Below are positions 133 to 46,097 of a stretch of DNA of 64,000 bases, in pieces. The stretch covers positions 85-64,084 of the forward strand of contig JBBSOB010000001.1 of NCBI GenBank assembly GCA_038260205.1, written 5' to 3'. A program made the translations under genes and the position numbers. Source of the DNA: Phormidesmidales cyanobacterium. Its GTDB lineage: Bacteria > Cyanobacteriota > Cyanobacteriia > Phormidesmidales > Phormidesmidaceae. The notes under the pieces are model-generated. The model searched no databases, was not told the DNA's origin, and worked only from the letters and a program-made list of their open reading frames with translations. Positions within the stretch are counted from its first letter, which is position 1. Each line of letters opens with the position of its first letter.

Positions 133-1944
133 ATGAGTCCTCTGATTCTCGAAGGCCGCTTTGAAATTGAAGAGCAGATCAGCCGTACGGATTTTATGGC
201 CGTGTATTTAGCGCGCGATCGCCATTATCTGCATCGCCCTCACTGCATCGTCAAGTCGATTAACTACCGACAGGCCAACATGCGCCACCGCATCGAGCGC
301 GAGGTGCATACGCTAGAGCTGCTAGGCGCACATCCCCAAATTCCTAACGTGCTGGCCTACTTTCATACCGATCATCAGACAGATCAGTCGTCGAACGATG
401 AGGAGCAAGTATTCTACATTGTTCAATCCTGGCTAGGCGGACACCCGATTAGTCGAGAAATTTCTGTCGGTCGCCCGCTGAGCGAAGGCTACGTTAGCAA
501 GCTGTTAAAAGACGTGCTGGTGCCGCTCGTATGCGTTCACGAGCAGGGCGTTGTCCATCAAAACCTGCATCCACAGCATTTAATTCGCCGCGATACCGAC
601 GGCCAGATTTTTTTAACTGAGTTTGGCACCCTTCCCAAGCTAGCTAGAAGTACCGTCGACGAATCCGGGGCGCTCACTAGCAGCGTTCCCATCAGCCCTC
701 AGCCCTACAGCGCTCCCGAACTACTTCAGCAAAACCCGCAGCCCGCCAGCGACCTCTATTCGCTGGGCCTAATTGCCATCGAAGCGCTCACCGGCCTGCA
801 CCACCAAGACTTAGACTTCGATCCGGTGAAGGGGTTGCTCTGGCGAGAACATGTTACGCATGGCGAAGGCATTGATGGCCAGGCGAGTCGATCGCTAGCA
901 GAATTTATTGACCGGTTGGTGCGGCATGATTGGCGCGATCGCTTTGAACAGGCCCAAGACGCGCTCTCGCAGCTAAAAGTAGTGCGCGATCGCCATCAAA
1001 TAGCCCAAGACAGTCGCTTTCCCACCGTAGTCGCGGCCCCTGGCAAACAGGCGACCAGCTTCGGCCGAACCACCCAAACGACCAATCTAGAAACCACGGC
1101 CCTGACCGCCTGGCCCCACGCCGCCGCCAAAACCCGACAGAATAACCGGCAGAATAATCGGCAAAACAACCTTCCCTATCCGCTGAACTTGGCCGTGGGT
1201 GGCCCCAAATCTGCGACTGAAACCGTTAGCCATCTCTCTCACCGCTATTCCTACGGCAACAGCCAAAAGACCAACCCTTATCTCGTGAAGTGGGCCATCG
1301 GCAGCGTTGCGGTTTTGATCGCCCTCGGCATCGGCGTTAAAACCTATCGCTGGGGAGAATACCGCATCAGTCGTCTGCCCCAAAGCTGGAGCGATTGGGC
1401 CGCCCCTTCTAGCCAATCCGCTTATCCAGCCGCCGACGCTGCGCAGCTTGTGCCGCTGTTTTTGGGAGACAGCAGCCTCTTACTCCAGCCCGCTGCGGCG
1501 ACTGCTTACTGGCAAATGTCTGCTGCTGCTGCCGCTGATGGCATCCAGCTATATGCACTGTCTGGCTACCGCAGCGAACCAGAAGCGCCGCCGCCTAGTT
1601 CTATAGATACCCAAGATGCGCAAAGACAGGCCCAAGAACAGGCCCAAGATCAGGAGCAGGCCCAGCAAGATGCCAAAGAAAGCGCCCGTAACGCCGCCGA
1701 CTATCACACCGGCTATGCGCTAGACATTGGCGGCGCATCCGAAAGCACCGACCGTCAGCTCTCGTTTGCCAAAACGGAGGACTACAAGTGGCTAACCAAC
1801 AACGCCAAGCTATATGGCTTTGAGCTATCTACCACCGCCTCACCGCTTAAGCGAGGACTCTTAGGAGCTGCCTCAGATCAGCCCTGGCACTGGCGCTATG
1901 TGGGAGATGCAGCTAGCCAGGCAGTTTTTGCCCCTAATAAATAG
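133..1944 (+). CDS. Membrane protein: N-terminal Ser/Thr pseudokinase, one TM helix, C-terminal VanY/M15B D,D-carboxypeptidase-like domain with degenerate active site
   Basis: Kinase scaffold motifs IVK, REVHTL..HPQIP, YSAPE and SDLYSLG are present, but the catalytic loop reads HQNLHPQH and DFG reads EFG. TM segment WAIGSVAVLIALGIGV. C-terminal SGYRS, YHTGYALDIG and QPWHWRY resemble VanY SGYRS, EHxTGxAxD and EPWHWRY. Confidence 0.85.
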   Translation: MSPLILEGRFEIEEQISRTDFMAVYLARDRHYLHRPHCIVKSINYRQANMRHRIEREVHTLELLGAHPQIPNVLAYFHTDHQTDQSSNDEEQVFYIVQSWLGGHPISREISVGRPLSEGYVSKLLKDVLVPLVCVHEQGVVHQNLHPQHLIRRDTDGQIFLTEFGTLPKLARSTVDESGALTSSVPISPQPYSAPELLQQNPQPASDLYSLGLIAIEALTGLHHQDLDFDPVKGLLWREHVTHGEGIDGQASRSLAEFIDRLVRHDWRDRFEQAQDALSQLKVVRDRHQIAQDSRFPTVVAAPGKQATSFGRTTQTTNLETTALTAWPHAAAKTRQNNRQNNRQNNLPYPLNLAVGGPKSATETVSHLSHRYSYGNSQKTNPYLVKWAIGSVAVLIALGIGVKTYRWGEYRISRLPQSWSDWAAPSSQSAYPAADAAQLVPLFLGDSSLLLQPAAATAYWQMSAAAAADGIQLYALSGYRSEPEAPPPSSIDTQDAQRQAQEQAQDQEQAQQDAKESARNAADYHTGYALDIGGASESTDRQLSFAKTEDYKWLTNNAKLYGFELSTTASPLKRGLLGAASDQPWHWRYVGDAASQAVFAPNK

Positions 1945-1966
1945 CTGACAGTGGCCCTCGACTGGT

Positions 1967-2034
1967 CAGTTTTATCAGATCAGTTTTGTCAGATCAGTTT
2001 TGTCAGATCAGTTCTGCCAGGTCAGTTCTGCCAA
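1967..2034 (+). repeat. Tandem 14-bp repeat, about 5 copies (CAGTTYTRYCAGRT)
   Basis: CAGTTTTATCAGAT, CAGTTTTGTCAGAT x2, CAGTTCTGCCAGGT, CAGTTCTGCCAA read directly between the kinase-like gene and the P450. Confidence 0.9.
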
Positions 2035-2066
2035 TAGAGTAAAAAACAACCCATTAAGGTGCCATT

Positions 2067-3548
2067 ATGACAAGTGCGATCGCCCAAAAACCGACCCTAA
2101 CCGTCCCTGGCCCTCCCCCTACGCCACTTCTAGGTGCAGCTCCCAACCTTCTCCGGTTCGCCAAAGACCCCATTGCCTACACGCGCCAGCTATTCGAGAA
2201 GTACGGCAATGTAGTTTCCTTGGTAGAAGGAGGCGGCACCCGGCTCTATTCTCACTATCCAGATTGTCCCGGCACCGTGTTTGCCTGTGGCCCCGAGGTG
2301 GTGCGTCAGGTCGCAACCCAGCCAGATGTTTTCTACAAATGTCCGCTTACTGGCCCGCTGTATCGCTTTCGCCATGAGTCGGCGCGGGCCAAGCCGCTAA
2401 ATCACTTTTTGGTGGGCCTCTTTGGCGACAACGAAGCGGCGCATAAGAAACAGCGCAAGCTAATGATGCCAGCCTTTCACCATCAGCGATTGGGCAGCTA
2501 CTTGCAAGATATGGTGGCCATCACCGCAGATGAATTGGACAAGTTGGGAGTGGGGCAGGTGCAGGATCTAGCAGCCACAATGCAACAGGTGACGCTGCGA
2601 ATTGCGGCCAAGTCTCTTCTTGGGGAAGATATTGGCCCAGAAGGCGCGAGCGCGGGAGAGATATTACATGCGGCCTTAGATATTCAGGGCAGCTTGGCGA
2701 TGGAATTTCTGCGGTATGATTTGCCAGGACTACCGTGGCGTCGCTATTTGAATCTAGTGGCAAAGTACGAGCAGTCGATGAAAGCGCTGTTGGATGCTAA
2801 AAGGGCGCGAGGATGCGACGAGCCTGATGTGCTCTCTATGCTGATGCAGGTGCAAGATGAGGAAACGCAAGAAAAGTTAAGCGAGGAAGAGTTGCTAGGT
2901 CATTTGGGCGTGATTTTTATTGCGGGTCATGATACCAGCGCCAATGCACTGACTTGGACATTATTTTTACTCTCTCAGCATCCGCAGATTATGGCCGATT
3001 TATTAGATGAACTAGAGGGCGTTTTGCAAGGAGATGCGCCAAATTTAGAACAACTTAAAAGCTTGCCGCTGCTAGAGCGCGTGATAAAAGAGAGTATGCG
3101 AGTGCTTGCGCCTGTGCCCTGGAATGCTCGGGTTACCGCTAAACCTACTGAGCTAGGTGGCTATAGTCTGCCGACCGGGACGGAAGTGTTGGTTAGCATT
3201 GCTCAAACGCATCACATGAGCGATTTGTACCCAAACCCAGCGTCTTTTGACCCAAGTCGGTGGGAGACGATTACGCCGACAGCTTACGAGTCCAATCCGT
3301 TTAGCGCGGGGCCTCGGGTTGGTATTGGTGCGGGCGGTGCGAGGTGGGAGATGAACATTATGTTGGCGATGCTGCTACAGCGATACCGGCTGGAGTTTGT
3401 GCCTGAGAACCCAATAGACCGCGCGGGAACGATTGTGATGCGGCCTAAGCATGGCATGTCGATGAGGGTGCATAAGCAGGATCGTCAGTTTGATGCGGGC
3501 GTGGGTGCGGTGCAGGGAAATATTCGCGATATGGTGAATTTGCCTTAG
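2067..3548 (+). CDS. Cytochrome P450 (heme-ligand Cys codon reads GGT/Gly in this sequence)
   Basis: PGPPPTP hinge, I-helix IAGHDTSA, K-helix KESMR (ExxR), FDPSRW meander, and heme loop FSAGPRVGIG (canonical FxxGxRxCxG). Confidence 0.9.
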   Translation: MTSAIAQKPTLTVPGPPPTPLLGAAPNLLRFAKDPIAYTRQLFEKYGNVVSLVEGGGTRLYSHYPDCPGTVFACGPEVVRQVATQPDVFYKCPLTGPLYRFRHESARAKPLNHFLVGLFGDNEAAHKKQRKLMMPAFHHQRLGSYLQDMVAITADELDKLGVGQVQDLAATMQQVTLRIAAKSLLGEDIGPEGASAGEILHAALDIQGSLAMEFLRYDLPGLPWRRYLNLVAKYEQSMKALLDAKRARGCDEPDVLSMLMQVQDEETQEKLSEEELLGHLGVIFIAGHDTSANALTWTLFLLSQHPQIMADLLDELEGVLQGDAPNLEQLKSLPLLERVIKESMRVLAPVPWNARVTAKPTELGGYSLPTGTEVLVSIAQTHHMSDLYPNPASFDPSRWETITPTAYESNPFSAGPRVGIGAGGARWEMNIMLAMLLQRYRLEFVPENPIDRAGTIVMRPKHGMSMRVHKQDRQFDAGVGAVQGNIRDMVNLP

Positions 3549-12187: not shown

Positions 12188-14248
12188 ATGCTCAAATTTT
12201 TTAGCTCGCCCATTCAGTTCAAAGCACTACTCATTCTCCGCGAAACTTTTCTCTCGCTGCTCCCTGCTGTTTTGATCGTAAATTGTCTGGTGGTGCTCTA
12301 TGGTCTCACCACGCTACTCGCCAGTTGGGGTATTCCAGTTCCTCACATCGACAGAGATGCTTTCAGTCGGCTCAGCAACTTTTTAATGCCGCTTTTTGCT
12401 AGCCTCTCGCTGAGTACGCTGCTAGCCAAAGAAAAAAATCTCGATCAGACGGGAACACTGCTCATTTCTCTCATTTGTTTCTTCCGAGGTTCAGGGTTTC
12501 TCACCATTAGCCAATCCGCCCAAATCGTCTCTTATCACGGCTCTATCCTCACTAGCATTCCGCTCACCTGGATGGCCGTTTGGCTTCTACAATATTTTTC
12601 GACGAAACCTCGGCTGCGCTTCATCTCAGAACAAGACCAGTATCGAACCAACCTGAGTCCTCGTCTAGCGGATACGCTCAATCTGATTGGCCCTGGCTTC
12701 TTAACCGTTTTATGCGTTGAGCTTTTCAGGCAAGGCGTCAGCCTACTGGCGTATATCAACCCAGTAGAACAACTAGCCCTCCCGCTAAGTCCGATGGGTT
12801 CTATTCCAGAACTGATTTTGTTCCAACTGATCTCACTATGCGCCTGGTTTGTGGGGTTGCACGGAGAACACAGCGCTTCCGGCATTTTTCGCTTTCTCTA
12901 CAACACGCCCAGTAGCGAAACGATGTTCTTTCAGCTTCAAACCTTTTATATTGTCTTTGTCCCGATAGGCGGTGCAGGCGCAACCCTGCCAATCCCATTT
13001 ATTATCTTATGGTCTAAACGCCTCTACAGATTTAAAGCGATCGCCCAGCTCAGCCTATTCTTCGCCCTATTCAACATCAACGAAATGTTGCTGTTTGGGC
13101 TGCCCATTATACTCAATCCCATTTTCCTCATTCCCTTTATCTCTACCGCATTCGTTAACACGATAATCGCCCTGAGCGCCATTCACTTTGGCCTATTCTC
13201 CATCGATCCGGCTTACATCCACTGGATGCTGCCACCGCTCTATAAATCGTATGTTGCTAGCCACGGATCGCCCTTGGCCGTACTCACCGAGTTCAGTTGC
13301 ATCGTTGTAGATGGCTGCATCTACTATCCCTTTTTAATCGCCGCCGCTCAGCAATACGAAGCCGCCGCATCCCTGTCCAACCTATTTAGCAAACACAACC
13401 AAAACTTTCTCCCTGAGGCTATCAATCAGCGCCAAGAAACCGCTTTTCTGATACGCCAAAGCAACGCTATGAAAAGGGTAGTCACCAGTCAAAAACTGTT
13501 GAATCATCTCAGCGGCGGACGCTTTTTACTATACTTTCAGCCCAAAGTTGCGGCCTCATCGCTGGATATTATCGGGCTAGAAGCCCTTCTCCGATTTCAA
13601 GATCGCAAAGGAAAAATTCATCTGCCCACCTTTTTGCCAACGCTCTACCGGCAGGGACTCTCCAAATCTCTCGATCGAGAAGTTGTTGATCTCATTTTTC
13701 AGCAGCTAAACCACTGGCGCACCGCTGATGTTACGGTTCCGACTATCGCGCTTAATTTTGACAAGGATTTCCTACTCGACACCGCAGCTATCAAAGCATT
13801 TATTCAGCGATCGCAAGCACACAACGTCCGATTCTGTATCGAAATCACCGAACATACCTACGTTGCAGAAATCAAAGCCCTCGCTTCAGTCGTCTATCAG
13901 CTTCGTGCGGCCGGACATCGCATCTCCATCGACGATTTCGGCACCGGATACTCTTCGCTCACCAGTCTAGTCTCTTTAGCCGCCGACGAAGTCAAACTCG
14001 ACAGAGCGTTAGCCGTTCCTCCCACACGCGAAGTAGAGCGCGGCACTCTGTTACTGCGCGCCAGCGTTCAGCTCTGCCACAACCTTGGGTTCTCAGTCGT
14101 CGCCGAAGGCATAGAAACCCAATCTCAACTTCAGCTAGCCCAAAGCTGCGGCGTAGATGTTGTTCAAGGTTACTACCTCGGCCATCCCATGAATGCTCAG
14201 CAAATCAGTCGCCTGCTTTCAGCCTCAGCGCCCTCCATCAGTGTTTAG
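12188..14248 (+). CDS. PTS EIIC (cellobiose/chitobiose-type) membrane domain fused to an EAL c-di-GMP phosphodiesterase
   Basis: EIIC motifs WFVGLHG, GGAGATL, FNINEMLLFGLPIILNP. EAL motifs GLEALLR, IEITEH, IDDFGTGYSSL, KLDR, VVAEGIET, VQGYY. Confidence 0.85.
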   Translation: MLKFFSSPIQFKALLILRETFLSLLPAVLIVNCLVVLYGLTTLLASWGIPVPHIDRDAFSRLSNFLMPLFASLSLSTLLAKEKNLDQTGTLLISLICFFRGSGFLTISQSAQIVSYHGSILTSIPLTWMAVWLLQYFSTKPRLRFISEQDQYRTNLSPRLADTLNLIGPGFLTVLCVELFRQGVSLLAYINPVEQLALPLSPMGSIPELILFQLISLCAWFVGLHGEHSASGIFRFLYNTPSSETMFFQLQTFYIVFVPIGGAGATLPIPFIILWSKRLYRFKAIAQLSLFFALFNINEMLLFGLPIILNPIFLIPFISTAFVNTIIALSAIHFGLFSIDPAYIHWMLPPLYKSYVASHGSPLAVLTEFSCIVVDGCIYYPFLIAAAQQYEAAASLSNLFSKHNQNFLPEAINQRQETAFLIRQSNAMKRVVTSQKLLNHLSGGRFLLYFQPKVAASSLDIIGLEALLRFQDRKGKIHLPTFLPTLYRQGLSKSLDREVVDLIFQQLNHWRTADVTVPTIALNFDKDFLLDTAAIKAFIQRSQAHNVRFCIEITEHTYVAEIKALASVVYQLRAAGHRISIDDFGTGYSSLTSLVSLAADEVKLDRALAVPPTREVERGTLLLRASVQLCHNLGFSVVAEGIETQSQLQLAQSCGVDVVQGYYLGHPMNAQQISRLLSASAPSISV

Positions 14249-14398: not shown

Positions 14399-16996
14399 AT
14401 GGCTTCAACCCTTACGGCAGAAACGTTAGACAGCGCAGAGATTTTGACACAGATCACAGGTCAGCAGGTGTTAGATCGTCACCTATCTCCTCAGATCATG
14501 TTTTTGTCGGCAATGACGACAGTACTAGTAGGCGTAGCTTATGCAGACGGGCAGCTAGCAGAGCGCGAAAAGATTTATCTTCAGAAGGTTTTGAAGCAGT
14601 TCGTGCCAACTGAAAGCAGTCTTGGGAAAATGATTTCTCTCATGCTTAAGGGTGTGCGGAAGCATAAAATTTATACTCGTCTAGATGCCATTACTACCCT
14701 AACCAGCTCATTATCTATTTCTGAGAAGCTAATTATTTTAGGGTTTGGGCATAGGTTGGCGATCGCAGATGGCCATGCAGAAGCACAAGAGAGACAATAT
14801 CTCGATACGGTAGCAAATTCGATAGGTGTACCCAACCAGCAGGCAAAGACGCTGTTCTCCTGTCTTGATGGGAGGCAATCTGAGGTTAACCCAGAAGCTG
14901 TAAAGGAACTGCGATGGTTGCTAGATCCTCAGCGCTTTCAAAACATCGATCCCGCTATTGTTAGGGCTGCTAGCTTTTTCTCCTCTAAGTTCTTGACTCA
15001 GCCAAAAAACGTATCGCCACTGGCTATCCATAAGCCATCGTACGCAAAGCTTGAAAAGTTTCAAGGCTATCAAGAGCAGCTAGGCTCAATTTGCACTGAC
15101 CTGATGCAAGTGCTGCAGGTAGAAGGAGACTACGATCTTTTTCCTACGGTGCTAGAAGATGAGGCGCGATCGCTCACCCAAAAAGTTCAGTCACAAAAGT
15201 TTCGGCTAGCCATCGTAGGTGAGTTTAGCCAAGGAAAATCGACATTTTTAAACGCGCTGCTGGGCGAAGAGTTACAGCCAGTGCGGGCGATTCCCTGTAG
15301 TGGAACGCTGACGGTGCTGAAGTACGGTGCCGAGAAGCGAGTTATTTGCTATTACAAGGATGGAACGCAAGCTGTCATTCCTTTTGACCAGTATCAGCAA
15401 CAAGCATCTATTCCAGAAGAAGCGGCCCTGGGAAATCTAGAGCTTGAGCTAGCAGAATCTAATATTGCTGAGATTGTGCTGGAGCATCCGGGGTTAGCGC
15501 TATGCCGTCACCATGTCGAAATTGTGGACTCTCCTGGATTGAACGAGCACCCTCATCGAACGGCTGTGACTGAACGGTTATTGCAAGATACCGACGCAGC
15601 TATTTTTTTGGCAAATGCGCAGCGCCCGATGACAAAAGGCGAGCGAGATTTATTACAGAGCCTGAAGCATCGCTTGCAGAAAGAAGATCCTAGTATTCCG
15701 GCTGATAATTTGTTTGTGCTAGTTAACTTTATGGATTTGTTGCGATCGCCCAAAGACGCAGCGCAAGTTGAGACGCTAGTAAAAAATGTTGTGTGCAATC
15801 CAGCAAATCCTCTAGTAAGTAACGACAATCGAGTTCATTTCGTGTCTGCGCGATCTGCACTAGAAGCAACTTTGACACAGACACCAAACGAGCATTCTAA
15901 GCCGTTCGCAGAATTCGTAAGCGCCCTCGAAACCTTTTTAGTAGAGGAAAGAGGCGAACTCACCCTTAGAAAGGGGATAATTGATATCCAAAAGCTTGCT
16001 TCAGGAATTGAAGATAGTCTCAAACAAACGACGAATATTTTGGAAGGCAAACTTAGCCTCTCAAAAGCGAAACAGCACGAAATAATAGAACAGACAGGCG
16101 AAATTAGTGGCTTTGATGTCAAGATACAAGCACTTTCAGAGTCTCTAAAAAAAGAAGCGCAATCAGAAGTTCACGGTTTATGGCAAAAATGGCGCAAAAA
16201 TGCCAGAACTCGCCTTGTCCGAAAGAGCGAGCAGTGGACAACTAACCACGAAGACAAGAACAGTATATTAAAGGACTACGCAGAACAATTTTTAGAAGAT
16301 ATTTCCAAAGACTTAGACGAGTGGCTGAAGAACACCGTCATGCAAAATGTCCTGAAACCTAAAATAGACAAGCTAAATGACGACATAGCTAAAAAGCTAT
16401 CTGCTATAGAACATGATTTACAATCTATTGACGAAGACACTGGTGCCAACCTACACACACAACTTAAGCTATCAGGTCTAGGAGTCAACCTCAAGTTTTA
16501 TTCTAAATTAGATGCTAATGCTGTAGGAGATGCTACAAACTTCTGGGATGATTTAGGTCTTAAAGGAGGTGGAATGGCTGCTGCTGGAGTACTAGCTTTT
16601 GCAGGAGTTGGTCTTTTACCAATCCTACTTATAGGTAGCGTCGCTGGAACGGCTGTCAGTTGGTTTTTTAGCAAAGATATAGAAGAGATGAAAGACGAAA
16701 TAAAGGAGGAAGTTTTCAGGAAAGGCATTAGCAAGTTCAAAGAATCTTCTCATACGATCATAGACAAGGTTATTAAAAACATTGAAGACACTTTTAGTAA
16801 AAGGACTCAAGATTTCCACAAGACAGCGGACGCTTCCGTTTCTATTTTATGTAATCTGATAGAGCAGCAAGAAAGCATTCTAAAGGAGACTTTAGCTCAA
16901 AAAGAAATAGAGTCAGAAATTATTAAGAAGAAAAGTATTCAACTGCAAGCTATTGAGATAGCTCTCACGAATCTCACTGAGACAGCATTGAACTAA
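14399..16996 (+). CDS. TerB-like domain fused to a bacterial dynamin-like GTPase
   Basis: N-terminal duplicated TerB-like motifs VAYADGQLAEREK and LAIADGHAEAQER. GTPase G1 GEFSQGKS, G2 region PCSG, G3 DSPG, G4 VNFMD. C-terminal helical stalk with hydrophobic Gly-rich paddle GGGMAAAGVLAFAGVGLLPILLIG. Confidence 0.85.
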   Translation: MASTLTAETLDSAEILTQITGQQVLDRHLSPQIMFLSAMTTVLVGVAYADGQLAEREKIYLQKVLKQFVPTESSLGKMISLMLKGVRKHKIYTRLDAITTLTSSLSISEKLIILGFGHRLAIADGHAEAQERQYLDTVANSIGVPNQQAKTLFSCLDGRQSEVNPEAVKELRWLLDPQRFQNIDPAIVRAASFFSSKFLTQPKNVSPLAIHKPSYAKLEKFQGYQEQLGSICTDLMQVLQVEGDYDLFPTVLEDEARSLTQKVQSQKFRLAIVGEFSQGKSTFLNALLGEELQPVRAIPCSGTLTVLKYGAEKRVICYYKDGTQAVIPFDQYQQQASIPEEAALGNLELELAESNIAEIVLEHPGLALCRHHVEIVDSPGLNEHPHRTAVTERLLQDTDAAIFLANAQRPMTKGERDLLQSLKHRLQKEDPSIPADNLFVLVNFMDLLRSPKDAAQVETLVKNVVCNPANPLVSNDNRVHFVSARSALEATLTQTPNEHSKPFAEFVSALETFLVEERGELTLRKGIIDIQKLASGIEDSLKQTTNILEGKLSLSKAKQHEIIEQTGEISGFDVKIQALSESLKKEAQSEVHGLWQKWRKNARTRLVRKSEQWTTNHEDKNSILKDYAEQFLEDISKDLDEWLKNTVMQNVLKPKIDKLNDDIAKKLSAIEHDLQSIDEDTGANLHTQLKLSGLGVNLKFYSKLDANAVGDATNFWDDLGLKGGGMAAAGVLAFAGVGLLPILLIGSVAGTAVSWFFSKDIEEMKDEIKEEVFRKGISKFKESSHTIIDKVIKNIEDTFSKRTQDFHKTADASVSILCNLIEQQESILKETLAQKEIESEIIKKKSIQLQAIEIALTNLTETALN

Positions 16997-17027: not shown

Positions 17028-18308
17028 ATGTATATTTTTTCACCGTTAATACAATTGGGAATTCTTGCTGGAAAATACAAAATAGTTGAGACAGCAGCAG
17101 GCGTTTCGATTGGAATGGTTCGAGACTCTGGGACAGGACAGTTTGTCGCACATGCTGTTGGCATGAGTCTTAATCCGCTGACAGCCATATCACAGATGTT
17201 TGTGGGGGCGGGACAACTGTACCAAGGACATAGAGCACTGCAAGGAATCAAGGCACTTTCTACCTCTGTAGCGACACTGCAGGCAACGACGGCTGTAATT
17301 GGCGTAGGCACCGTGTCCGTTGCAGCACTCTCTGCGGTGAATCTTTGGCAAACGCTCAAGCTTAGAAAAGATGTGCGGCAGATGCGCGTTGAGGTTAGGG
17401 AAGGATTTATTGATCTCAAGCAGGTGTTTGCAGATCAAGGTGTTGAGCTAATTGAGCATATTCAGCACGTATCGGAAGATGTAGAGTTCAGGGCGCACCG
17501 GACGATTTTAGCGAGGGCTTACGGTCTGTTCGAGAAGGCCATGAATCGGCTGGGTTCAGCGGTGACGATGCAGGACTTGGGCGCGCGCCATGATGAGATT
17601 AAAGCGGCTAGAGACATGATGTTTCGGGCGCTGTCAGATTATGACAATAGTCAGCTCATGAGCGGTGTTAGCTCGGCTGCGTACATCCGTAGGCGCGAGT
17701 GTGTGTGGGCCATTGAGCAGGCGATCGCCATGACGTACGAAATGCAAAGCGAATGGCAAACGGTGAGCGATCGCCTCACCCACCTAAACACCACTATCCG
17801 ACAAGATGCCGCATTTACCCTGAGCAAAGCTGAAACCCTCGACGAACTAGACTTTTTGTATCCAGAACTCACCAGAATTCGCGATCACGATCTAGTTTCT
17901 ATCGAAGCCTGGAAAAATCGCGTTGACTGGTCTAAAACGCTATCGGTAGCAGAAATGGAACAACTGAAGGCGATCGCACCTGATGAAAATAGCGCGATCG
18001 CAGACATCACCGACCTAGAAACGCCTACCGACGACAAACCAGCCGAATACGCTTTTTATGCAGCGGCTAAATCAAACTTCGTATCAGACGCTTTATATGC
18101 CAGCTTGGTCTACTCCTTTGATTTAGAAGCGCGGCGACAAGGAGAAGACTATATTGCCAAAAGAGCAGCGCTAGCGTCCTTAAGCGCATTCAGCACTCAA
18201 AACCTTAAAAACGCCTCGCCGCTAACAGTAGCCAATCTCAATCTATACTTCGCAGCAAAAGACGAATCGCAAGCAGCAGCAGATGAGAGTACAGCAGTAG
18301 CTGCGTGA
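17028..18308 (+). CDS. Hypothetical protein, likely partner of the dynamin-like protein
   Basis: 426 aa, 31 nt after the dynamin stop, with AAGGAG RBS. Hydrophobic stretch TTAVIGVGTVSVAALSAVNLW followed by a coiled-coil-like segment. I recognise no catalytic motif. Confidence 0.75.
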   Translation: MYIFSPLIQLGILAGKYKIVETAAGVSIGMVRDSGTGQFVAHAVGMSLNPLTAISQMFVGAGQLYQGHRALQGIKALSTSVATLQATTAVIGVGTVSVAALSAVNLWQTLKLRKDVRQMRVEVREGFIDLKQVFADQGVELIEHIQHVSEDVEFRAHRTILARAYGLFEKAMNRLGSAVTMQDLGARHDEIKAARDMMFRALSDYDNSQLMSGVSSAAYIRRRECVWAIEQAIAMTYEMQSEWQTVSDRLTHLNTTIRQDAAFTLSKAETLDELDFLYPELTRIRDHDLVSIEAWKNRVDWSKTLSVAEMEQLKAIAPDENSAIADITDLETPTDDKPAEYAFYAAAKSNFVSDALYASLVYSFDLEARRQGEDYIAKRAALASLSAFSTQNLKNASPLTVANLNLYFAAKDESQAAADESTAVAA

Positions 18309-26163: not shown

Positions 26164-26619
26164 ATGGCAGATTGGCTAGAGCATAGCGTCCATGTTGATC
26201 TAGACGTTGCGATTGAAAACGTTTGGCAGCTCTGGTCTGACCTGGAGCAAATGCCCAAATGGATGAAGTGGATCAGCTCAGTAAAAATGTCGCCAGATAA
26301 TCCTCAGCTATCGGAATGGAAGCTAGAAACAGGGGGACTGTCTTTCGCTTGGAAATCGCGCATTGTCAAGAAAATTCCGCTGCAAATTATTCAGTGGGAG
26401 TCGGTCGATGGGCTACCCAACAAAGGAGCCATTCGATTTTACGGGCGCAAAGACGGCAGCAGCACCGTTAAGATGACCGTGGCCTACGCGCTACCGGCAA
26501 TTTTAGCCAAGCTGATGATGAGCAGTTCTTTGGTAGATCGAGTTGTGACCTCAACGCTACAGGCAGATCTAGATCGCTTTCGCGATTATGCAGTGGCGAA
26601 ATATCCTAAGCAGAGTTAA
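26164..26619 (+). CDS. SRPBCC / polyketide cyclase family protein
   Basis: MADWLEHSVHV..WQLWSDLEQMPKWM..WESVDGLPNKGAIRFY, the cyanobacterial SRPBCC pattern. Confidence 0.9.
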   Translation: MADWLEHSVHVDLDVAIENVWQLWSDLEQMPKWMKWISSVKMSPDNPQLSEWKLETGGLSFAWKSRIVKKIPLQIIQWESVDGLPNKGAIRFYGRKDGSSTVKMTVAYALPAILAKLMMSSSLVDRVVTSTLQADLDRFRDYAVAKYPKQS

Positions 26620-26635
26620 CAAAAGGGCGAAACGC

Positions 26636-29224
26636 ATGACCCTATCGCCATACGCCAACGCACAGTCGGGGTTTAGGGCAAAACCCGATCCGGCTGAAGC
26701 TGCTTTGAGAGAGCACAACCTAGCCGCTCTTTTTATCCAGCATCTAGGATGGGAATTGCCGTCTCAAAATGACATCAGGCGAACACCGCCGCCCAAGGCG
26801 CAAGCGCAGTGTGTTCCGATTGCCCGTAGAGGAGACACTGTCGTCTGGCAAGTTCAGCTTGCTGCTAACACAGACTTCACGTCGGCACTCAAAGAGCAGC
26901 TCTACGACGAGATTGCAGGGATCTCTGATCTAGAATTTGCACGGCCTCTCGTAATCTTTGTAGACGCTAGAAACAGCCGCAGTCTCTGGTGTCAGGCAAC
27001 GCATCGACAAGGCTCGATTGAGAGCGCTCTGTACGTTTCGGAGCAGCCAATTGTTCTTTGGAAATTTCGGCTGGAGCGGCTGCAAAAAGAGAATGCTCAA
27101 AGAAAATATCAAAAAAGAACTCAGAACGAGTCTCACCGAGAATCCCAAAGAGAATCCTATAAAGCCTCTGTGCTTTTTCGTTCCGATGGCTCAGGGGCCT
27201 ATTTGCCTTTTCAGGTGCTGCTAGACGATCTGTGTGAAGGAATTACTGGCATTGGCAACATTACTGACTGCCAAAATTATGCGGTTTTGACGTTGCAAAG
27301 ACTGATACTTATTCAGGTGATACAGAAAAAGGGCTGGGTAGATGACGATACATGGTATCTCCAAACTCAGTTTGAAGCAGCGCTACAGTCGCAGCAAAGC
27401 TTCTTCTCAACGCGGTTGCAGCCGCTTTACCGGTGTTTAGCCCTCCCCAAAGTGGAGCGCCCCGTAGCTCTGAATCAGCAGGTCGGAGCTGTGCCTTTTT
27501 TAGGGCATTTTTTTCATACCCACCGGCTAGAGCAAAAGTACGCAAACATCAGCATCGACAATCAACCTTTTGAACAGATTCTGGGCTGGCTGATCGAACA
27601 AACCAGCGCAGATGGACTAAACCTTTGGAGCAGCGGAGCGCTCAGTCATTGTTTAGAGGCGTATTTAGCGAGTCAGTATCTCTCTGAGGAGACGGCAGCA
27701 GAGGCGCTACTGAGTTCTCCAGGGTTAGCAAACTGGATTAGCGATCGCACGCTTAGCCAGCTCGTCATCACCCGAACAAAGGCCATCAGCGATCAAAATC
27801 ATCCAACAGATATTAACGATTTACTCTTTAACGCAGATGCCAAAACCTGTCGCTGTTTAATCCAAGACGTATTACCCAACCTGCGCATTCTCGATCCGGC
27901 CTGCGGCAGCGGTAGTTTACTCGTAGGCCTCTATCAACGGCTCACCGAAATATTCAGCAATCTAATTGGATACAGTCAGCAAAACCAGGATGTGCAGCTC
28001 AAAATCTGGCAGGCGGGACTCGTAGAAGATAGCGATGACAGCCAGAGTCAATTCGCTCAGGCAAATCCCTTGCAGACTGTCCAAAAGCGCATTCTAAAAA
28101 ACATTCTCTATGGCGTCGATATTTCTATGCAGGCCGTGGAATCTACAACATTCCAGCTATTAATGCATACCGTGGCGATCGCGCAGCAGCCCAAAGATAT
28201 TGAACCCTTGGCCGATCTGGCCTTCAATATCCTGGTGGGTAATAGCCTGATTGGCCTAATTGACGTTGACCCAGAGAGATTTGAAAAGGTTTCCCAGGTG
28301 GGCGATCGCCAAGTGCTACAGGGCAGCCTGCTACAGCCTTTAGTGGCCGATAGCTATCAGACGATTTTGGCCGAGAAAAATTTGGCCGTAGAACATTACA
28401 AATCTCGCAATCAGATGCTAGCAGAAGCCAACAACGTTCCGGACTATGCCAGAGCCGCTTTGCTTAAAGAAGATATTTTGCGATTGGATATCAACGCCCA
28501 GCAAAAGTTAGACCAGCTATTGCTCAATCAAATGAGTCATCAGCTGGGCATTCAGTATAAGGTAGCGCAGCTAACCGAGAAACCGCAGCGCCGCCCGCTA
28601 ACGCCAGAAGATATTGATATTTTGCAGCCTTTTCACTGGGGCTACCACTTTAATAAGATTCTTGAAAGGGGCGGGTTTGACAGTGTTGTTTGCAGACCGC
28701 CGCAGGGCGACTTTAAACCAACTGCAACAGAATTTTTACAAAAGTTTCGAGATTTAGCGGCGATCAAAGGGATGAGTGTGCGATCGCTCAAAACCTCAAA
28801 ACAAGCCCTCGCCAAAGGCGATCCAGAAATTGCCGGAGCCTGGCTATTTTACCAAGATCAGTACGCCTACGTGGCTGACTACTTCTATCGCAGCGAGCAA
28901 TACAGGCATCAGAACCCAACGGTGGAAGGAAAAACAGTTAGAAACCGGCTGACAAGAGAAAGGTTATTTGTAGAACAATGTTCTAACCTGTTGGCACCCG
29001 GCGGAATTGGCGCAGTCGTCTCGGCCCAAAAATTTTCGCAACAGCAGAAAGCACAGTCCGTTTATAATTTTTTAAGCGAGCAAGCGATTGTTAAAGAGGC
29101 GGTAGTCAGAGGAGCGGTAGTCAGAGAATTTGTGCCAGGCGCTTCAGAAAAAACAGCCATCGTGACGATATGGCAGAAGAAGGCTGAACCACCCAAAGAG
29201 AATAGCTCTAAAAGAACGCAATGA
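26636..29224 (+). CDS. Eco57I/Type IIG-like N6-adenine DNA methyltransferase homologue with degenerate catalytic motif IV
   Basis: SAM-binding motif I ILDPACGSGSLL, YGVDI, NILVGNSLIG, PFHW..F, motif IV GFDSVVCRPPQ (canonical FDxVIGNPPY), LFVEQCSNLLAPGG. The ORF ends soon afterwards. Likely start is ATG at 26636. Confidence 0.8.
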   Translation: MTLSPYANAQSGFRAKPDPAEAALREHNLAALFIQHLGWELPSQNDIRRTPPPKAQAQCVPIARRGDTVVWQVQLAANTDFTSALKEQLYDEIAGISDLEFARPLVIFVDARNSRSLWCQATHRQGSIESALYVSEQPIVLWKFRLERLQKENAQRKYQKRTQNESHRESQRESYKASVLFRSDGSGAYLPFQVLLDDLCEGITGIGNITDCQNYAVLTLQRLILIQVIQKKGWVDDDTWYLQTQFEAALQSQQSFFSTRLQPLYRCLALPKVERPVALNQQVGAVPFLGHFFHTHRLEQKYANISIDNQPFEQILGWLIEQTSADGLNLWSSGALSHCLEAYLASQYLSEETAAEALLSSPGLANWISDRTLSQLVITRTKAISDQNHPTDINDLLFNADAKTCRCLIQDVLPNLRILDPACGSGSLLVGLYQRLTEIFSNLIGYSQQNQDVQLKIWQAGLVEDSDDSQSQFAQANPLQTVQKRILKNILYGVDISMQAVESTTFQLLMHTVAIAQQPKDIEPLADLAFNILVGNSLIGLIDVDPERFEKVSQVGDRQVLQGSLLQPLVADSYQTILAEKNLAVEHYKSRNQMLAEANNVPDYARAALLKEDILRLDINAQQKLDQLLLNQMSHQLGIQYKVAQLTEKPQRRPLTPEDIDILQPFHWGYHFNKILERGGFDSVVCRPPQGDFKPTATEFLQKFRDLAAIKGMSVRSLKTSKQALAKGDPEIAGAWLFYQDQYAYVADYFYRSEQYRHQNPTVEGKTVRNRLTRERLFVEQCSNLLAPGGIGAVVSAQKFSQQQKAQSVYNFLSEQAIVKEAVVRGAVVREFVPGASEKTAIVTIWQKKAEPPKENSSKRTQ

Positions 29225-32278: not shown

Positions 32279-34576
32279 ATGTTATTTTGGTCTTACCCAT
32301 TGCGATTAAACCTCGCATTTTTCTGGCTACTTGTTTTAGTCGCCATCCCAAAAGCTGCCATTGCCGACGAATATCAAGACGCGATCGCAGATCCAGCCAC
32401 AGCGCACGCTCAGCCTTCACCCAAAACCAAGCTAAAACCCAAACCTACCAACATTTTTTCTAGCTTTAGCACTCGCGATCGCTCAACTATAGACAATGAG
32501 ATAGTTGCATCATCCCTCGCAGCGCCACCCAACTACGCCTTAGCACCAGGACAAACAATAGAGAAAATAGAAAACGCAGAATTAGAACAGAGTAGTGCAG
32601 ATATAGAAGAATCAAAAAAACCCGAAGAAGAACCGGAAGAAAAACCAGAAAACCTAGATCCTTCAGGTTATGCAGTACCACCCCATACAGTTCCACTAGC
32701 ATCATTACCCCCTAGCGGAACTCAATTTCGACTCAACAGGCAATGGCTAAATCACCTAAGCAAAACAGAGCTTCAAACAGGCTATCAGTTTGGCCACGAC
32801 GTGAACAGCACTTCTAGTGTCCAAGGCACCATCGCTCTAGACAGTCGCCTTCAGCGCAGCATCACCAACGATCAAGTTGTTACAGTCGAGCACAAAGGAA
32901 CCTACTTACAGACAGAATCCGTTGCCCGCTCAAGAGAAGTAACCCTTACCCAAACGCTACCTGAAACAGTAAATGGAGTTGGCATCCAGCTAAGTTTTAC
33001 CGGCGCTTGTCTGTTTCCAGAAACCACTTCCGAAGAGCGATGTTCTTATACGCCAGGGCTTAGCACCGTACAGCCCAACGATATTTTTGAGCTTCAAGAA
33101 GCTGGGAAGCTACAAGATGACGGGAAGCTAGGCGAAATTTTAACAGATGAGTCGCTAGCGGCCATAGCACAGCCAGGGTTTCAAAGAGGCGTAGATGGAC
33201 AAGCCATTGGCGTAGACCTCTTATTTCCCAACGTGGGCACGCGCGCAGGCAATCGCCTGTCCGACAAAACCTCTATCGACCGCACCGAAACATACGACAT
33301 AGTGCCATCGTTTACACTAGCTAGAAGCCGCCAAATTGTCAGAATGAACGAAAAGGAAGCGGCCTTAGGATTAACCATTCGAGGCAACACCTGGATTTCG
33401 CAAGACGCCAATATAGAAATCAATGCCTTATTACAAGCCGGGGTGGCTCTACTTCCTGATATAGTACCTCGCCTTAAAGGCAGCGATAAAACAGCAAACC
33501 CGCGGGTCAATAGCAACCTATTTTTAGCCGCCAATAATGCTCGACTGCCTCCAGGAGGCTTTACGCTATATCAAGGGGGTATCAGCAGAGCCGACTCCAT
33601 TGAGCCTGATATGCAGCCGCAGGATCTACCCTCTGCGAAATTTAAAGGCGTATGGATTGGGCTTTCGCCCGTGGTAGATTATCACATTGGAATAAAAACC
33701 AGCAGCAAAAGCCTAGATGCATTACGCCTGATCCAAACGATCGGAGCAGAAGGCAAAAGCGGCGGCAGCAGCAATTTATTTTTTTTAGCTGCAATCGATG
33801 GCGATGAATTCATTGCCGCTAATATTCAAGACACCTATATACAAATTTATCAGTCTCTCTACGAAACTGATAGCCAAACTGTAACAGTTGAAAACTACAA
33901 AGAGCAAACCAGTTATTACCCTCATATTAGGGTTACCGGAAACACAACAGATTTTGATAGCGTTTTCAACTACTATGCGGGTCTAATCGTTGAGGATCGG
34001 CTGAATGCTTATGCTGGAGCGGACTATACTATTTTTTCGCCAAATGGGTTGACGTACGAGTTAGGAAGCGTTTTTTATACTCAGCCTGATCGAGATTACT
34101 ACAGTCAGCTTAGCGGGAAAATAACCAAGCGAGTTCGGCTATCAGAGCAGGCTTCACTTTCTCTCTCTAGCGGCCTTAACTGGGCGCTCGATAGAAAAGA
34201 TCAAATTGGGGATGTTGAACTCAATTCTAGAAGTAGCGCCGTTTATCTTCAAGCAAGGGCCGATTTAGACCCAGTCTTTTTTCAAGCAATTGGCAACTTG
34301 GGCGGAATTTTACCTGATTCTGCGCGTAGCGAACTACGTTTACAATCAGGCGTCAAGCTATTAGACAAGGTAACGCTTTCTGGATTTATCACGGCCTTCT
34401 CCAAAAGCAGCAGCTATGCTCGCTACGGCACTTCCTTAGCCTGGCAGCCAGCTAATGAACAGAGTCCCGTCCTGAGTATAGGTTGGACGAATAATCGCTA
34501 TGGGTTTGGAACAGATCAATTAGGCAATGATATTTCTACTAGCGAAGATATATTCGCTATCTCCTTAAATTTATAA
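32279..34576 (+). CDS. Large exported hypothetical protein, possibly outer-membrane beta-rich
   Basis: N-terminal hydrophobic signal-like segment, Pro/Glu-rich linker, and a C-terminal region of alternating hydrophobic/polar strands ending IFAISLNL. Confidence 0.7.
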   Translation: MLFWSYPLRLNLAFFWLLVLVAIPKAAIADEYQDAIADPATAHAQPSPKTKLKPKPTNIFSSFSTRDRSTIDNEIVASSLAAPPNYALAPGQTIEKIENAELEQSSADIEESKKPEEEPEEKPENLDPSGYAVPPHTVPLASLPPSGTQFRLNRQWLNHLSKTELQTGYQFGHDVNSTSSVQGTIALDSRLQRSITNDQVVTVEHKGTYLQTESVARSREVTLTQTLPETVNGVGIQLSFTGACLFPETTSEERCSYTPGLSTVQPNDIFELQEAGKLQDDGKLGEILTDESLAAIAQPGFQRGVDGQAIGVDLLFPNVGTRAGNRLSDKTSIDRTETYDIVPSFTLARSRQIVRMNEKEAALGLTIRGNTWISQDANIEINALLQAGVALLPDIVPRLKGSDKTANPRVNSNLFLAANNARLPPGGFTLYQGGISRADSIEPDMQPQDLPSAKFKGVWIGLSPVVDYHIGIKTSSKSLDALRLIQTIGAEGKSGGSSNLFFLAAIDGDEFIAANIQDTYIQIYQSLYETDSQTVTVENYKEQTSYYPHIRVTGNTTDFDSVFNYYAGLIVEDRLNAYAGADYTIFSPNGLTYELGSVFYTQPDRDYYSQLSGKITKRVRLSEQASLSLSSGLNWALDRKDQIGDVELNSRSSAVYLQARADLDPVFFQAIGNLGGILPDSARSELRLQSGVKLLDKVTLSGFITAFSKSSSYARYGTSLAWQPANEQSPVLSIGWTNNRYGFGTDQLGNDISTSEDIFAISLNL

Positions 34577-45026: not shown

Positions 45027-46097
45027 TCACTGCCGCCGCCTGCGACTAAACGGACTGCTAATTTCTAAATCGCCGATTTTAATCCCTTTGGTCACATCTA
45101 ATCCCGGTGGCTGCTGCGCTTGATGCCGAGAAATTGCTTCGTACACATCATCGGCGATCGCAATATGAGATCTTGTCACCACCGGATCAGCTTCTAATAG
45201 CTGAAACTTGTAGTAAAGCATCCGCGAAAAATCGGTTAGGCTACCGCTAAAAAACTCTGTCGGCGACACCGTCACCGAGTCGTCCTCCATAATCTGCTCA
45301 ATCAACTGCGGACTCAAAATCGACTGAAACTGCTGCACATACGCCCAGGCAATCGAGCGTAGATCCATCTGTAAATCGCCCTTTTCGGCATAGCTAGCGA
45401 CCCGCTGCGCCAGCGCGATCCATTCAGGTGCCACCCACCGGCTCAGCGCTTGCTCCAAGTCAAAAGCAGCCATGACCCGATTAACCAGCACTCGCCCACC
45501 CGACCGGCTCAGCGATCCATCGTTCAAAGTTGCCACCACGGTTTGAGCCAAATTGAGTACCGCTTCGGGTTTCCAGTCCACGTTATCCGGCGCAAACTGC
45601 TGCAAGTAAGCGCTAATTACATTGATGACCGTGACTTCCTGCTCGCGTTGCCAGATCGCCGCCTGCTCCGCCAACAGCTGCGATCCGACATCCACCAGCG
45701 CCGGATCTATCCCTAGGCTTTCAAAGGCGGCGATCGCCTCATCTGTAAATCTCTCTAGCTGAGCATTCTCAACCGTCACCGTCGAGAGATTCGCCACCAC
45801 CGCGCCCACAACGGCCCGCAGATCCATCGCCGACTCTGGCCGACCAAAAGTCACCACGTAGGCTCGCAGCACATTGAGCACCGGCTTCAAATCGTCTAGG
45901 CCAAATTTTTTCTTCTCGGATTTCTTCTGAGACAGATTGATAACAGGCGGCTTGAGGTCAGAGCTAGCTTTTTCAGGCGCGTTTTTGTCAGGCACAGCAG
46001 ACTCCAAAGAAGAACGAGAATCAGGGGCGTAGAGATCAGAAACACGGGTATCAAGTTGAGGCGACCTTCTAAACAATCGACGCAGCCAACGAAACAT
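45027..46097 (-). CDS. Hypothetical protein
   Basis: 356-aa ORF with a plausible start. I recognise no family motif. Confidence 0.7.
   Translation of the reverse strand: MFRWLRRLFRRSPQLDTRVSDLYAPDSRSSLESAVPDKNAPEKASSDLKPPVINLSQKKSEKKKFGLDDLKPVLNVLRAYVVTFGRPESAMDLRAVVGAVVANLSTVTVENAQLERFTDEAIAAFESLGIDPALVDVGSQLLAEQAAIWQREQEVTVINVISAYLQQFAPDNVDWKPEAVLNLAQTVVATLNDGSLSRSGGRVLVNRVMAAFDLEQALSRWVAPEWIALAQRVASYAEKGDLQMDLRSIAWAYVQQFQSILSPQLIEQIMEDDSVTVSPTEFFSGSLTDFSRMLYYKFQLLEADPVVTRSHIAIADDVYEAISRHQAQQPPGLDVTKGIKIGDLEISSPFSRRRRQ

Follow-up and report, generated by a model that had tools for sequence, protein, structure and literature searches.

Near the start of a 64,000-nucleotide stretch (the window) of contig JBBSOB010000001.1 from a Phormidesmidales cyanobacterium (GenBank assembly GCA_038260205.1) lies a gene of 603 codons (positions 133-1944), with an ATG start and an unbroken frame, whose product joins a Hanks-type kinase fold to a VanY/LdcB-like peptidase fold and in which residues central to the chemistry of both folds have been replaced. 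From sequence comparison, we consider it probable that this bitopic protein of the inner membrane is a receptor or a scaffold, that its ancestor was a cyanobacterial receptor Ser/Thr kinase with a zinc-less VanY/LdcB-type (LAS-fold) periplasmic sensor, and that the protein signals without catalysis. More tentatively, Leptolyngbya/Phormidesmis-type cyanobacteria may hold an undescribed trans-envelope lineage, a receptor Ser/Thr kinase with a zinc-less M15B sensor, in which the kinase was switched off at least twice. Its output in the Phormidesmidales would have become independent of phosphorylation, by way of a remodelled HQNLHPQH loop and a dedicated, co-inherited partner protein with two transmembrane (TM) helices, and all of its intermediates would be extant: active, half-dead, dead with the partner and, as in the window, dead without it. 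This wider scheme we offer as possible rather than as probable. A preliminary description of the stretch, made from the letters alone, had placed the gene at 133-1944 and read SRTDF, HQNLHPQH, EFG, DYHTGYALD and QPWH as its altered motifs, and all of these proved correct by alignment.

In the kinase half, a Pfam Pkinase match covers residues 12-272 (E = 3.8e-18, 66.3 bits with a cut-off of 31.7), and its motifs were read from a residue-by-residue alignment to StkP. Here, the Gly-rich loop is gone, with the IGRGGM of StkP aligned to ISRTDF, and the catalytic loop reads HQNLHPQH where HRDLKPxN is canonical, which puts Asn in place of the catalytic Asp, His in place of the Lys, and His in place of the Mg-binding Asn. 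The αC Glu (Glu57) is kept in this protein, the αF Asp (Asp207) is invariant, and Arg270, presumably the pairing partner of the APE Glu, is conserved in the family. Judged as a competent Hanks kinase, the protein thus has the fold and the Lys41/Glu57 pair and lacks the Gly-rich loop, HRDxKxxN, and DFG. A pseudokinase is defined in sequence by the absence of at least one among the VAIK Lys, the HRD Asp, and the DFG Asp; two of the three are absent here, and all three from most of the family. The preliminary description had listed the VAIK Lys, the αC Glu, and APE as kept, and this holds for the protein in the window, but the Lys is not a family feature, being found at position 41 only here and in the 14 clusters of the nearest subclade, with Thr, Val, Ile, or Met in the rest. 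This confinement to one nested subclade weakens Lys41 as a sign of retained ATP binding.

A model of the kinase domain made with AlphaFold2 (AF2) from the family alignment (pLDDT 88, pTM 0.87) gave Stk1, PknA, and PknB as the top Foldseek hits (E about 1e-16, TM-score 0.6-0.8). Immediately beyond the fold, residues 291-305 form the most conserved block of the whole protein (mean top-residue frequency 0.79), and its invariant Ser294/Thr298 motif could be, on the strength of this conservation, a docking or trans-phosphorylation site.

Turning to the other half, the VanY match spans residues 450-592 (E = 2.7e-18, 66.5 bits with a cut-off of 25), and its peptidase motifs were read against LdcB (4mph and 4ox3), VanY-B, and intact cyanobacterial VanY proteins. 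What is SEH(H/Q)TGxAxD in active-type enzymes reads ADYHTGYALD here. A shifted zinc ligand at His525 was considered and excluded, since this residue corresponds in the alignment to the second His of SEHH, which is not a ligand, and in the family it can be His, Gln, Val, Ala, Pro, Ser, Thr, or Gly. While SGYRS itself is retained in this protein, the M15B segment downstream of it is not, and the SGYR Arg is variable across the family; between SGYRS and the His motif, intact M15B relatives have about 37 conserved residues, whereas the family has 4-47 unconserved ones. As measured against a competent M15B peptidase, the fold is thus present, and the H-x6-D ligands, ExxH, and the SxxRS...Q/PPGxS segment are not. 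With Tyr524 and Gln583 in these positions, peptidase activity of the protein is very unlikely. The AF2 model of the ectodomain (pLDDT 83) returned LdcB, VanY, and VanXY as its top Foldseek matches (E = 3e-8 to 1e-5), with the N-domains of Hedgehog proteins lower down, as is expected for the LAS fold, and the sequence match to LdcB 4mph reached E = 6.6e-13. Structure prediction, which the preliminary description had proposed for both halves, thus gave a confident kinase fold and a confident VanY/LdcB fold. Its phrase 'dead D,D-peptidase' stands as far as the loss of the canonical residues goes; the D,D part is not established, as the closest solved relatives, the LdcB proteins, are L,D-carboxypeptidases.

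As had also been described, one TM helix precedes the VanY/M15B-like domain, and we found a single hydrophobic segment (Trp387-Val402) in the protein. Since there is no signal peptide and a large folded domain stands at the N-terminus, the kinase fold must face the cytoplasm and the VanY fold the periplasm.

A search of 5.8 billion clustered proteins yielded about 90 clusters with the same Pkinase and VanY pairing at 42-81% identity, and their hosts are only Phormidesmis, Synechococcus sp. PCC 7335, and related marine and terrestrial cyanobacterial metagenome-assembled genomes (MAGs). Conserved throughout are L-S-x-T-D-F, H-Q-N-L-H-P-Q-H, APE, DYxTGYAxDIGG, and PWHWRY. By contrast with these, some residues of the former active sites come and go: the Asp531 ligand has given way to Ala or Ser in one clade (11 clusters) and is lost in about 12 clusters overall, and the Glu of ExxH, kept by most members, is gone independently in at least five clades, the subclade of the window's protein among them (as placed on a neighbour-joining tree whose rooting is approximate). 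The exchange of this Glu for Gln noted in the preliminary description is therefore real in this protein, but it is subclade-specific and recurrent, not ancestral.

To gauge selection, we used 11 orthologue pairs from genomic loci, for which the ratio of non-synonymous to synonymous substitution rates (dN/dS, by Nei-Gojobori) is 0.08-0.16 in the kinase fold, 0.12-0.18 in the VanY fold, 0.02-0.24 in the periplasmic juxtamembrane segment (residues 401-449), and 0.16-0.55 in the post-kinase linker with the TM helix (residues 291-400). On the window's own branch, a three-taxon decomposition gave about 0.13, with no relaxation visible. Moreover, across 15 coding sequences (CDSs), Thr19, Asp20, Phe21, Cys38, His142-His149, Ser294, Thr298, Tyr524, Thr526, Gly527, and Tyr528 are invariant or almost so although each is encoded by 2-4 synonymous codons, and positions 41, 163, 525, and 583 vary non-synonymously. 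Replacement residues that stay fixed through synonymous turnover, beside old catalytic positions that drift, argue for selection on the new motifs and not for remnants of the old chemistry. Simple decay into a pseudogene is rejected by the dN/dS values of the two folds (0.08-0.18) together with this codon-level test. Hence the earlier suggestion that chemistry was lost while the gene was maintained is borne out by purifying selection on each domain, and the value near 1 that had been named as the mark of decay does not appear, the replacement motifs being conserved in the homologues.

Further evidence on how the two halves changed came from relatives of the ectodomain, for which an exhaustive phmmer search was run against 1.84 billion representatives and the best 150 were considered. 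Only about a dozen of these are kinase fusions; among the best matches, 121 of 143 further representatives keep the canonical His, Asp, and Glu, and the long ones are VanY+M23 fusions. The nearest stand-alone relatives are membrane-anchored cyanobacterial VanY proteins with intact SGFRS..Q, PPGYSEHHTGYALDIGD (of the SEHHTGYALD type), and EPWHWRY motifs, which makes an active-type enzyme the source of the fusion. One of the fusions (P0269) aligns to the window's protein over the full length (31% identity, E = 7e-79), and its kinase is fully canonical (DQGGYG, CVLKEL, QQEA, HRDIKPAN, DFG, and APE), with 117 Pfam bits compared with 62-66 in the pseudokinase family. Its post-kinase motif, QDSGLPTHVVAKGP, is related to that of the window's protein, the TM helix and the juxtamembrane motif (GFGVKGYQW) are the same, and its ectodomain is already degenerate: SDYHTGYAIAIGD (SDYHTGYAxAIG) has Tyr for the His ligand and Ala for the Asp.

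This sister lineage includes three further metagenome loci, which are rich in the HIP1 palindrome (and so cyanobacterial) and show omega values of 0.05-0.10 with dS near saturation. In two of them (L024 and L025), the kinase is intact (GGYG, VxK, HRDIKPAN, and DFG). In the third (L026, 71% identity), HRNIQPAA stands in the catalytic loop, the αC Glu is Ala, and GGYG has become GSYG, with DFG and the β3 Lys kept, and from these motifs a second, independent inactivation of the kinase is apparently in progress. The genes compared lie at 6001-7467 in L026, 6001-7470 in L024 and L025, and 900-2366 in L021. More distant pseudokinase members are those of Romeria/Vasconcelosia LEGE 07310 (HGNITPES and GFG) and Leptolyngbya sp. 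SIO4C1 (HQNVQPSS). Because a Tyr-substituted ectodomain sits on an intact sister kinase, the ectodomain would have lost catalysis before the kinase died, and the most economical order that the sequences suggest is fusion, then loss of the zinc site in the ectodomain, then kinase death on at least two occasions. The analogy with PASTA kinases drawn in the preliminary description also gains support here, as P0269, L024, and L025 carry the same TM helix, juxtamembrane motif, and Tyr-ectodomain on a canonical kinase.

Two single proteins seen in these searches are noted for themselves. A stand-alone cyanobacterial-type VanY of 279 residues (P0363) has Tyr at the zinc-ligand His position (GEYITGYAVD) together with EPWHWRY, and thus the His-to-Tyr substitution is not strictly limited to fusions. 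A 352-residue fragment (P0360), from a kinase-VanY fusion cut short at the N-terminus, keeps DFG and has a still more degenerate ectodomain (SDYHTGYGLA and QPWRW), and its sequence hints at a further fusion lineage.

In all 14 of the other core-clade loci examined, an ORF of about 132 codons follows the receptor gene directly, on the same strand and 30-390 nucleotides (nt) away. These loci include those of the two closest relatives and of PCC 7335 (for example, L002 10150-10548, L018 12079-12477, and L001 5139-5651, with 11 more). Besides two TM helices, the encoded partner has a C-terminal domain of strong conservation (RPYFLLEPRQLTVYNLLG..KRYTFDSWE.VKADSRRIYIDD.GITKKV.V.PWLV), which is predicted to be cytoplasmic because a positively charged N-terminus is followed by the two helices. 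No Pfam family above threshold, no PADLOC match, and no relative in the Protein Data Bank by profile at E 10 was found for it. The partner family itself comprises 86 clusters (56-100% identity) confined to the receptor's taxa, many of which sit on contigs of sizes that match receptor-bearing contigs; one NCBI partner record is labelled 'UPF0005' and looks mis-annotated. Adjacency of the partner is absent in the distant members (Romeria and Leptolyngbya SIO4C1) and in the sister clade loci.

The window also lacks it. Here, the stop codon of the receptor gene (1944) is followed by 122 nt and then by a cytochrome P450 gene (2067-3548, plus strand), whereas in L001, the closest relative, the P450 gene comes after the partner, so that the window is without about 600 bp relative to L001 4994-5714. 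Within the partner-less gap are a terminator-like hairpin (1952-1968) and a 14-nt tandem repeat, TCAGTTTTGTCAGA, in 4.4 copies at 1966-2027 as found by Tandem Repeats Finder (TRF), and the short-read contigs of the four metagenomes that hold the window's organism all end inside this repeat. No partner homologue was found across the 64 kb of the window. Low-depth partner-like fragments are present in three of the four metagenome samples, and none in the fourth. A 125-residue ORF with a TTG start (2000-2377, plus strand) runs into the beginning of the P450 gene in a different frame and is partner-sized; as a candidate for the missing partner it was rejected, having no similarity to the partner, and it is almost certainly spurious.

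Taken together, we picture a receptor whose ectodomain would bind, but not cleave, a cell-wall enzyme or a ligand resembling a peptidoglycan stem peptide, whose conserved juxtamembrane and TM segment would relay the binding, and whose pseudokinase would give its output by protein-protein contact in place of phosphotransfer. Candidate contact surfaces are the HQNLHPQH loop, the intact C-lobe, and the Ser294/Thr298 motif, and in most genomes the usual contact would probably be the co-inherited two-TM partner on the cytoplasmic side. In the window's genome, with the partner absent at the locus, the receptor would act alone or through other partners. That the same ectodomain is wired to a live kinase in the sister lineage is what would be expected if the ectodomain is the sensor. 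The same arrangement fits the logic of an outside-in receptor kinase better than that of the main rival, in which signalling would run the other way: the degenerate LAS ectodomain, as an effector and not a sensor, would bind and activate or inhibit a periplasmic amidase or peptidase, as in FtsEX-EnvC or DipM, and the pseudokinase would serve as input module under the control of either an active Ser/Thr kinase or the two-TM partner. Catalytically inactive LAS (LytM) domains are indeed established regulators of autolysins (PMC10336132, PMC8416486, PMC9662197), the invariant Ser294/Thr298 could be a phospho-input, and the conservation of Tyr524 and Asp523 suggests a specific protein or ligand interface. 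Moreover, an M23/LysM gene stands near the Romeria orthologue, although the neighbourhood has no conserved hydrolase gene and the regulators known so far belong to M23 rather than to M15B. On balance, we regard such inside-out control of a hydrolase as rather unlikely.

Other observations weigh against a receptor devoid of chemistry and with a settled role. Asp523 and Tyr524 are invariant and, to judge from the alignment, could make up, together with Asp531 and His586, a modified site for a metal or ligand, so that 'dead' may overstate the case for members with Glu583 retained. A chemical role is also conceivable for the three conserved His residues in HQNLHPQH. An operon partner such as a kinase, phosphatase, or FHA protein was looked for in the window and related loci and not found, and no conserved adjacent kinase, FHA, or cell-wall gene there points to a specific pathway, while loss of the partner could mean that the module is being dismantled in the window's lineage. 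Cryptic or new catalysis in one or both domains, whether at the altered site just named (with Glu583 in most members) or as a SelO/SidJ-style reaction through HQNLHPQH, would account for the strict conservation of the replacement residues and for the ExxH Glu and the His and Asp ligands kept by most of the family, and pseudokinases with new activities are documented in SidJ and SelO (PMC12599244). We nonetheless think it quite improbable, given that Glu583 is Gln in the window's protein, that this Glu has been lost at least five times and Asp531 in an 11-cluster clade with constraint retained, that the SGYR Arg varies, and that the helix-loop which joins SGYRS to the His motif in active enzymes is missing or free of constraint (4-47 residues). 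In the kinase, likewise, the former G-loop carries an invariant Asp, and the β3 Lys and DFG Asp drift with no alternative conserved Lys or Asp. Least probable of all, in our estimate, is that the gene is a relic in this genome, its two-gene module being the functional unit, its partner deleted, and its ORF merely unbroken so far. The partner adjacent in all 14 other core-clade loci, the two closest relatives included, the missing 600 bp, the want of a partner homologue in the window, and a search for RNA evidence that yielded none speak for such a loss, but the 603-codon frame is intact, dN/dS on the window's branch is not elevated, and, of the variants seen in four metagenomes, one is a 3-nt indel that keeps the frame and none is a frameshift. 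Furthermore, Romeria, Leptolyngbya SIO4C1, and the sister clade persist with no adjacent partner, and another place in the genome could hold the partner, as the low-depth partner-like contigs in three of four samples would allow. A non-catalytic receptor or scaffold therefore remains our preferred reading of the gene, whose features are collected in Table 1.

Table 1. Features of the receptor gene and the gap that follows it (positions in the window; numbering of residues, aa, is that of the 603-residue protein).
Feature	Position	Strand	Basis
Double-pseudoenzyme CDS, 603 aa: pseudokinase, TM helix, degenerate VanY/LdcB-like domain	133-1944	+	ORF list; Pfam Pkinase and VanY; about 90 homologous clusters with identical architecture
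Hanks-type kinase fold, aa 5-290, predicted dead	145-1002	+	phmmer alignment to StkP/PknA/PknB; AF2; Foldseek; dN/dS 0.08-0.16
Degenerate G-loop ISRTDFMAV, aa 16-24; T19-D20-F21 replaces GxGxxG	178-204	+	StkP alignment; T19/D20/F21 invariant in 15 CDSs, 2-3 synonymous codons each
β3 Lys41 (VAIK Lys), present in this protein	253-255	+	Only this protein and P0001-P0014; elsewhere T/V/I/M/R
Remodelled catalytic loop HQNLHPQH, aa 142-149 (canonical HRDLKPxN)	556-579	+	StkP alignment (HRDLKPQN); near-invariant across about 90 clusters
EFG at the DFG site, aa 163-165	619-627	+	StkP alignment; position 163 unconstrained in family (E/Q/H/D/G/K/Y/C)
APE motif, kept, aa 194-196	712-720	+	StkP alignment; P195 and E196 invariant in family
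Post-kinase family motif DSRFPTVVAAPG, aa 293-304 (consensus DSRxPTVxAAPG)	1009-1044	+	S294/T298 invariant
Unconserved low-complexity cytoplasmic linker with NNRQ repeat, aa 305-378	1045-1266	+	Conservation 0.07, gap fraction 0.54 (aa 306-378); tandem repeat 1134-1171
Sole TM helix core, W387-V402	1291-1338	+	Hydropathy maximum and sequence; kept in family and sister clade
Periplasmic juxtamembrane motif KTYRWGEYRISRLPQSWSDW	1339-1401	+	K, W, G, R, P, W, W near-invariant; sister clade counterpart GVKGYQW
VanY/LdcB-like (M15B, LAS fold) ectodomain, aa 450-592, predicted non-catalytic	1480-1908	+	Pfam; LdcB/VanY PDB alignments; AF2; Foldseek; dN/dS 0.12-0.18
Q/A/E/D-rich low-complexity insert, aa 483-520, in place of helix-loop (RSxxxQ...PPGYS)	1579-1692	+	4-47 aa, unconserved in family
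DYHTGYALD; Tyr524 at first Zn-ligand (His) position, Asp531 ligand kept	1699-1725	+	Aligned to LdcB SEHQTGLTMD and cyanobacterial SEHHTGYALD; Tyr invariant in family
QPWH; ExxH catalytic Glu replaced by Gln583, His586 ligand kept	1879-1890	+	EPWH in LdcB/VanY alignment; Glu lost independently in at least 5 clades
Intergenic gap lacking the partner gene	1945-2066		Synteny; L001 alignment; TRF; hairpin

The strain variants found in aquaculture metagenomes cluster at 1585-1740, within and just upstream of the Q/A-rich insert; one of them is an in-frame insertion of CGC after 1585, and none is a frameshift. As for the surroundings, the density of the highly iterated palindrome HIP1 (GCGATCGC, 103 copies in the window) and neighbours such as chlH, dnaK, gyrA, and ppk mark the window as ordinary cyanobacterial chromosome, and its nearest sequenced relatives are MAGs of Phormidesmis and 'Leptolyngbya foveolarum'. 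The receptor lies in syntenic housekeeping DNA (M1 peptidase, thiC, SSF, and P450 genes), not in a defence island. Directly upstream of the receptor gene in five loci (L001 198-2888, L002 5034-7718, L003, L010, and L020), and on the same strand, is a gene for an M1 aminopeptidase with HEAT/PBS-lyase-type repeats (about 870-900 residues), and the window probably starts within the intergenic DNA downstream of it. Farther along the window, a 686-residue ORF (12188-14248, plus strand) shows an unusual pairing of an EIIC-like membrane domain of the phosphotransferase system with a C-terminal EAL domain (c-di-GMP phosphodiesterase), and an 865-residue ORF (14399-16996, plus strand) has an N-terminal TerB and a dynamin-family GTPase, as in bacterial dynamin-like proteins; the next ORF after the latter (17028-18308, 426 residues) has no Pfam match. 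An ORF at 26588-29224 (plus strand) is of Eco57I-like methylase type by a weak Pfam match, and for those at 32279-34576 (plus strand), 45027-46097 (minus strand), and 57277-58260 (minus strand), of 765, 356, and 327 residues, there was no Pfam family at E ≤ 1e-5.

Among known systems, the PASTA kinases (PknB, StkP, and Stk1/PrkC) share with the window's protein a bitopic N-in topology, a cytoplasmic Hanks domain, one TM helix, and an ectodomain from the cell-wall repertoire, and StkP, PknA, PknB, and Stk1 are the best sequence and fold matches of its kinase domain; the sister clade with an intact kinase would, from its sequences, be their direct functional analogue. Unlike them, however, it has no PASTA repeats by Pfam, its ectodomain is of the M15B/LAS kind, and the G-loop, HRD Asp, loop Lys and Asn, and DFG Asp are lost. 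In fact, the NCBIfam model for PASTA kinases (NF033483, PknB_PASTA_kin) gave 72.8 bits with a cut-off of 450, over the kinase region only, and the protein is not a PASTA kinase. Precedents for a non-catalytic pseudokinase scaffold at the membrane are found in the MviN and EssB/YukC proteins. The former, the mycobacterial MviN/MurJ pseudokinase (ActPs3) with FhaA, is membrane-tethered, linked to peptidoglycan, and serves as a scaffold once a Thr beside it has been trans-phosphorylated (PMC12599244), and by analogy Ser294/Thr298 could act likewise here. Nevertheless, ActPs3 is actinobacterial, its motifs are VALT and LSIDHPSR, and its activation loop carries a deletion, while the domains to which MviN is fused are a flippase and a carbohydrate-binding one, not a LAS domain. 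EssB/YukC of the type VIIb secretion system is monotopic with a cytoplasmic pseudokinase, has all catalytic motifs and the G-loop degraded, and scaffolds or dimerises (PMC12599244), but it has no sequence kinship to the window's protein, comes from Firmicutes, serves a secretion machine, and has no peptidase fold in its outer domain.

With respect to the ectodomain, LdcB, VanY, and VanXY (zinc carboxypeptidases of MEROPS M15B) share its fold and a clear homology, and the window's protein retains two of their ligands, Asp and the second His, along with the PWHWRY core; it differs by Tyr for His, Gln for Glu, low-complexity sequence for the substrate-side helix-loop, and fusion to a kinase fold. 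The LytM factors EnvC, NlpD, and DipM are members of the LAS superfamily that have lost metal ligands and regulate cell-wall enzymes (PMC10336132, PMC9662197), yet they are M23 and not M15B, are soluble, lipoproteins, or bound to FtsX, and have no kinase-fold fusion.

The described bacterial pseudokinase families (ActPs1-3, GLW, CP1, DYD, and DLHK) are Hanks-type with triad residues lost, several with a C-terminal TM helix; CP1, from cyanobacteria and proteobacteria, has no TM helix and is always linked to COG3899, DLHK has no TM helix and keeps the HRD Asp, GLW has these letters at the HRD site and is proteobacterial, and ActPs and DYD come from actinobacteria and firmicutes (PMC12599244). 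Judged by these published descriptions, the present family belongs to none of them, as none fits in TM helix, VanY linkage, HQN motif, and restriction to cyanobacteria. The 2025 review of pseudokinases makes no mention of VanY, carboxypeptidase, or HQN (PMC12599244), and a bacterial Ser/Thr kinase atlas none of VanY or carboxypeptidase. Although PADLOC models of PD-T4-6 match the kinase fold with up to 162 bits, an antiphage kinase was rejected, since these and the NCBIfam MAD6 match are generic fold matches far from their cut-offs, and lost catalytic residues, the TM and VanY architecture, and the housekeeping locus do not agree with it. Public records name the proteins 'D-alanyl-D-alanine carboxypeptidase family protein' or 'serine/threonine protein kinase', both of which, going by the motifs, probably describe activities that this family does not have. 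The joining of a receptor pseudokinase to a degenerate LAS domain is, by the bacterial pseudokinase literature searched, a new combination, and its evolutionary intermediates are unusually complete. Bacterial pseudokinases are barely studied, and the family would add to the seven described ones a cyanobacterial, membrane-bound one with pseudoenzymes at both ends of the receptor. If our reading is true, it would offer a natural series for the transition from receptor kinase to pseudokinase or scaffold, and the system bears on the reuse of a peptidoglycan-peptidase fold as a sensor and on how cyanobacteria monitor their unusually thick cell wall.

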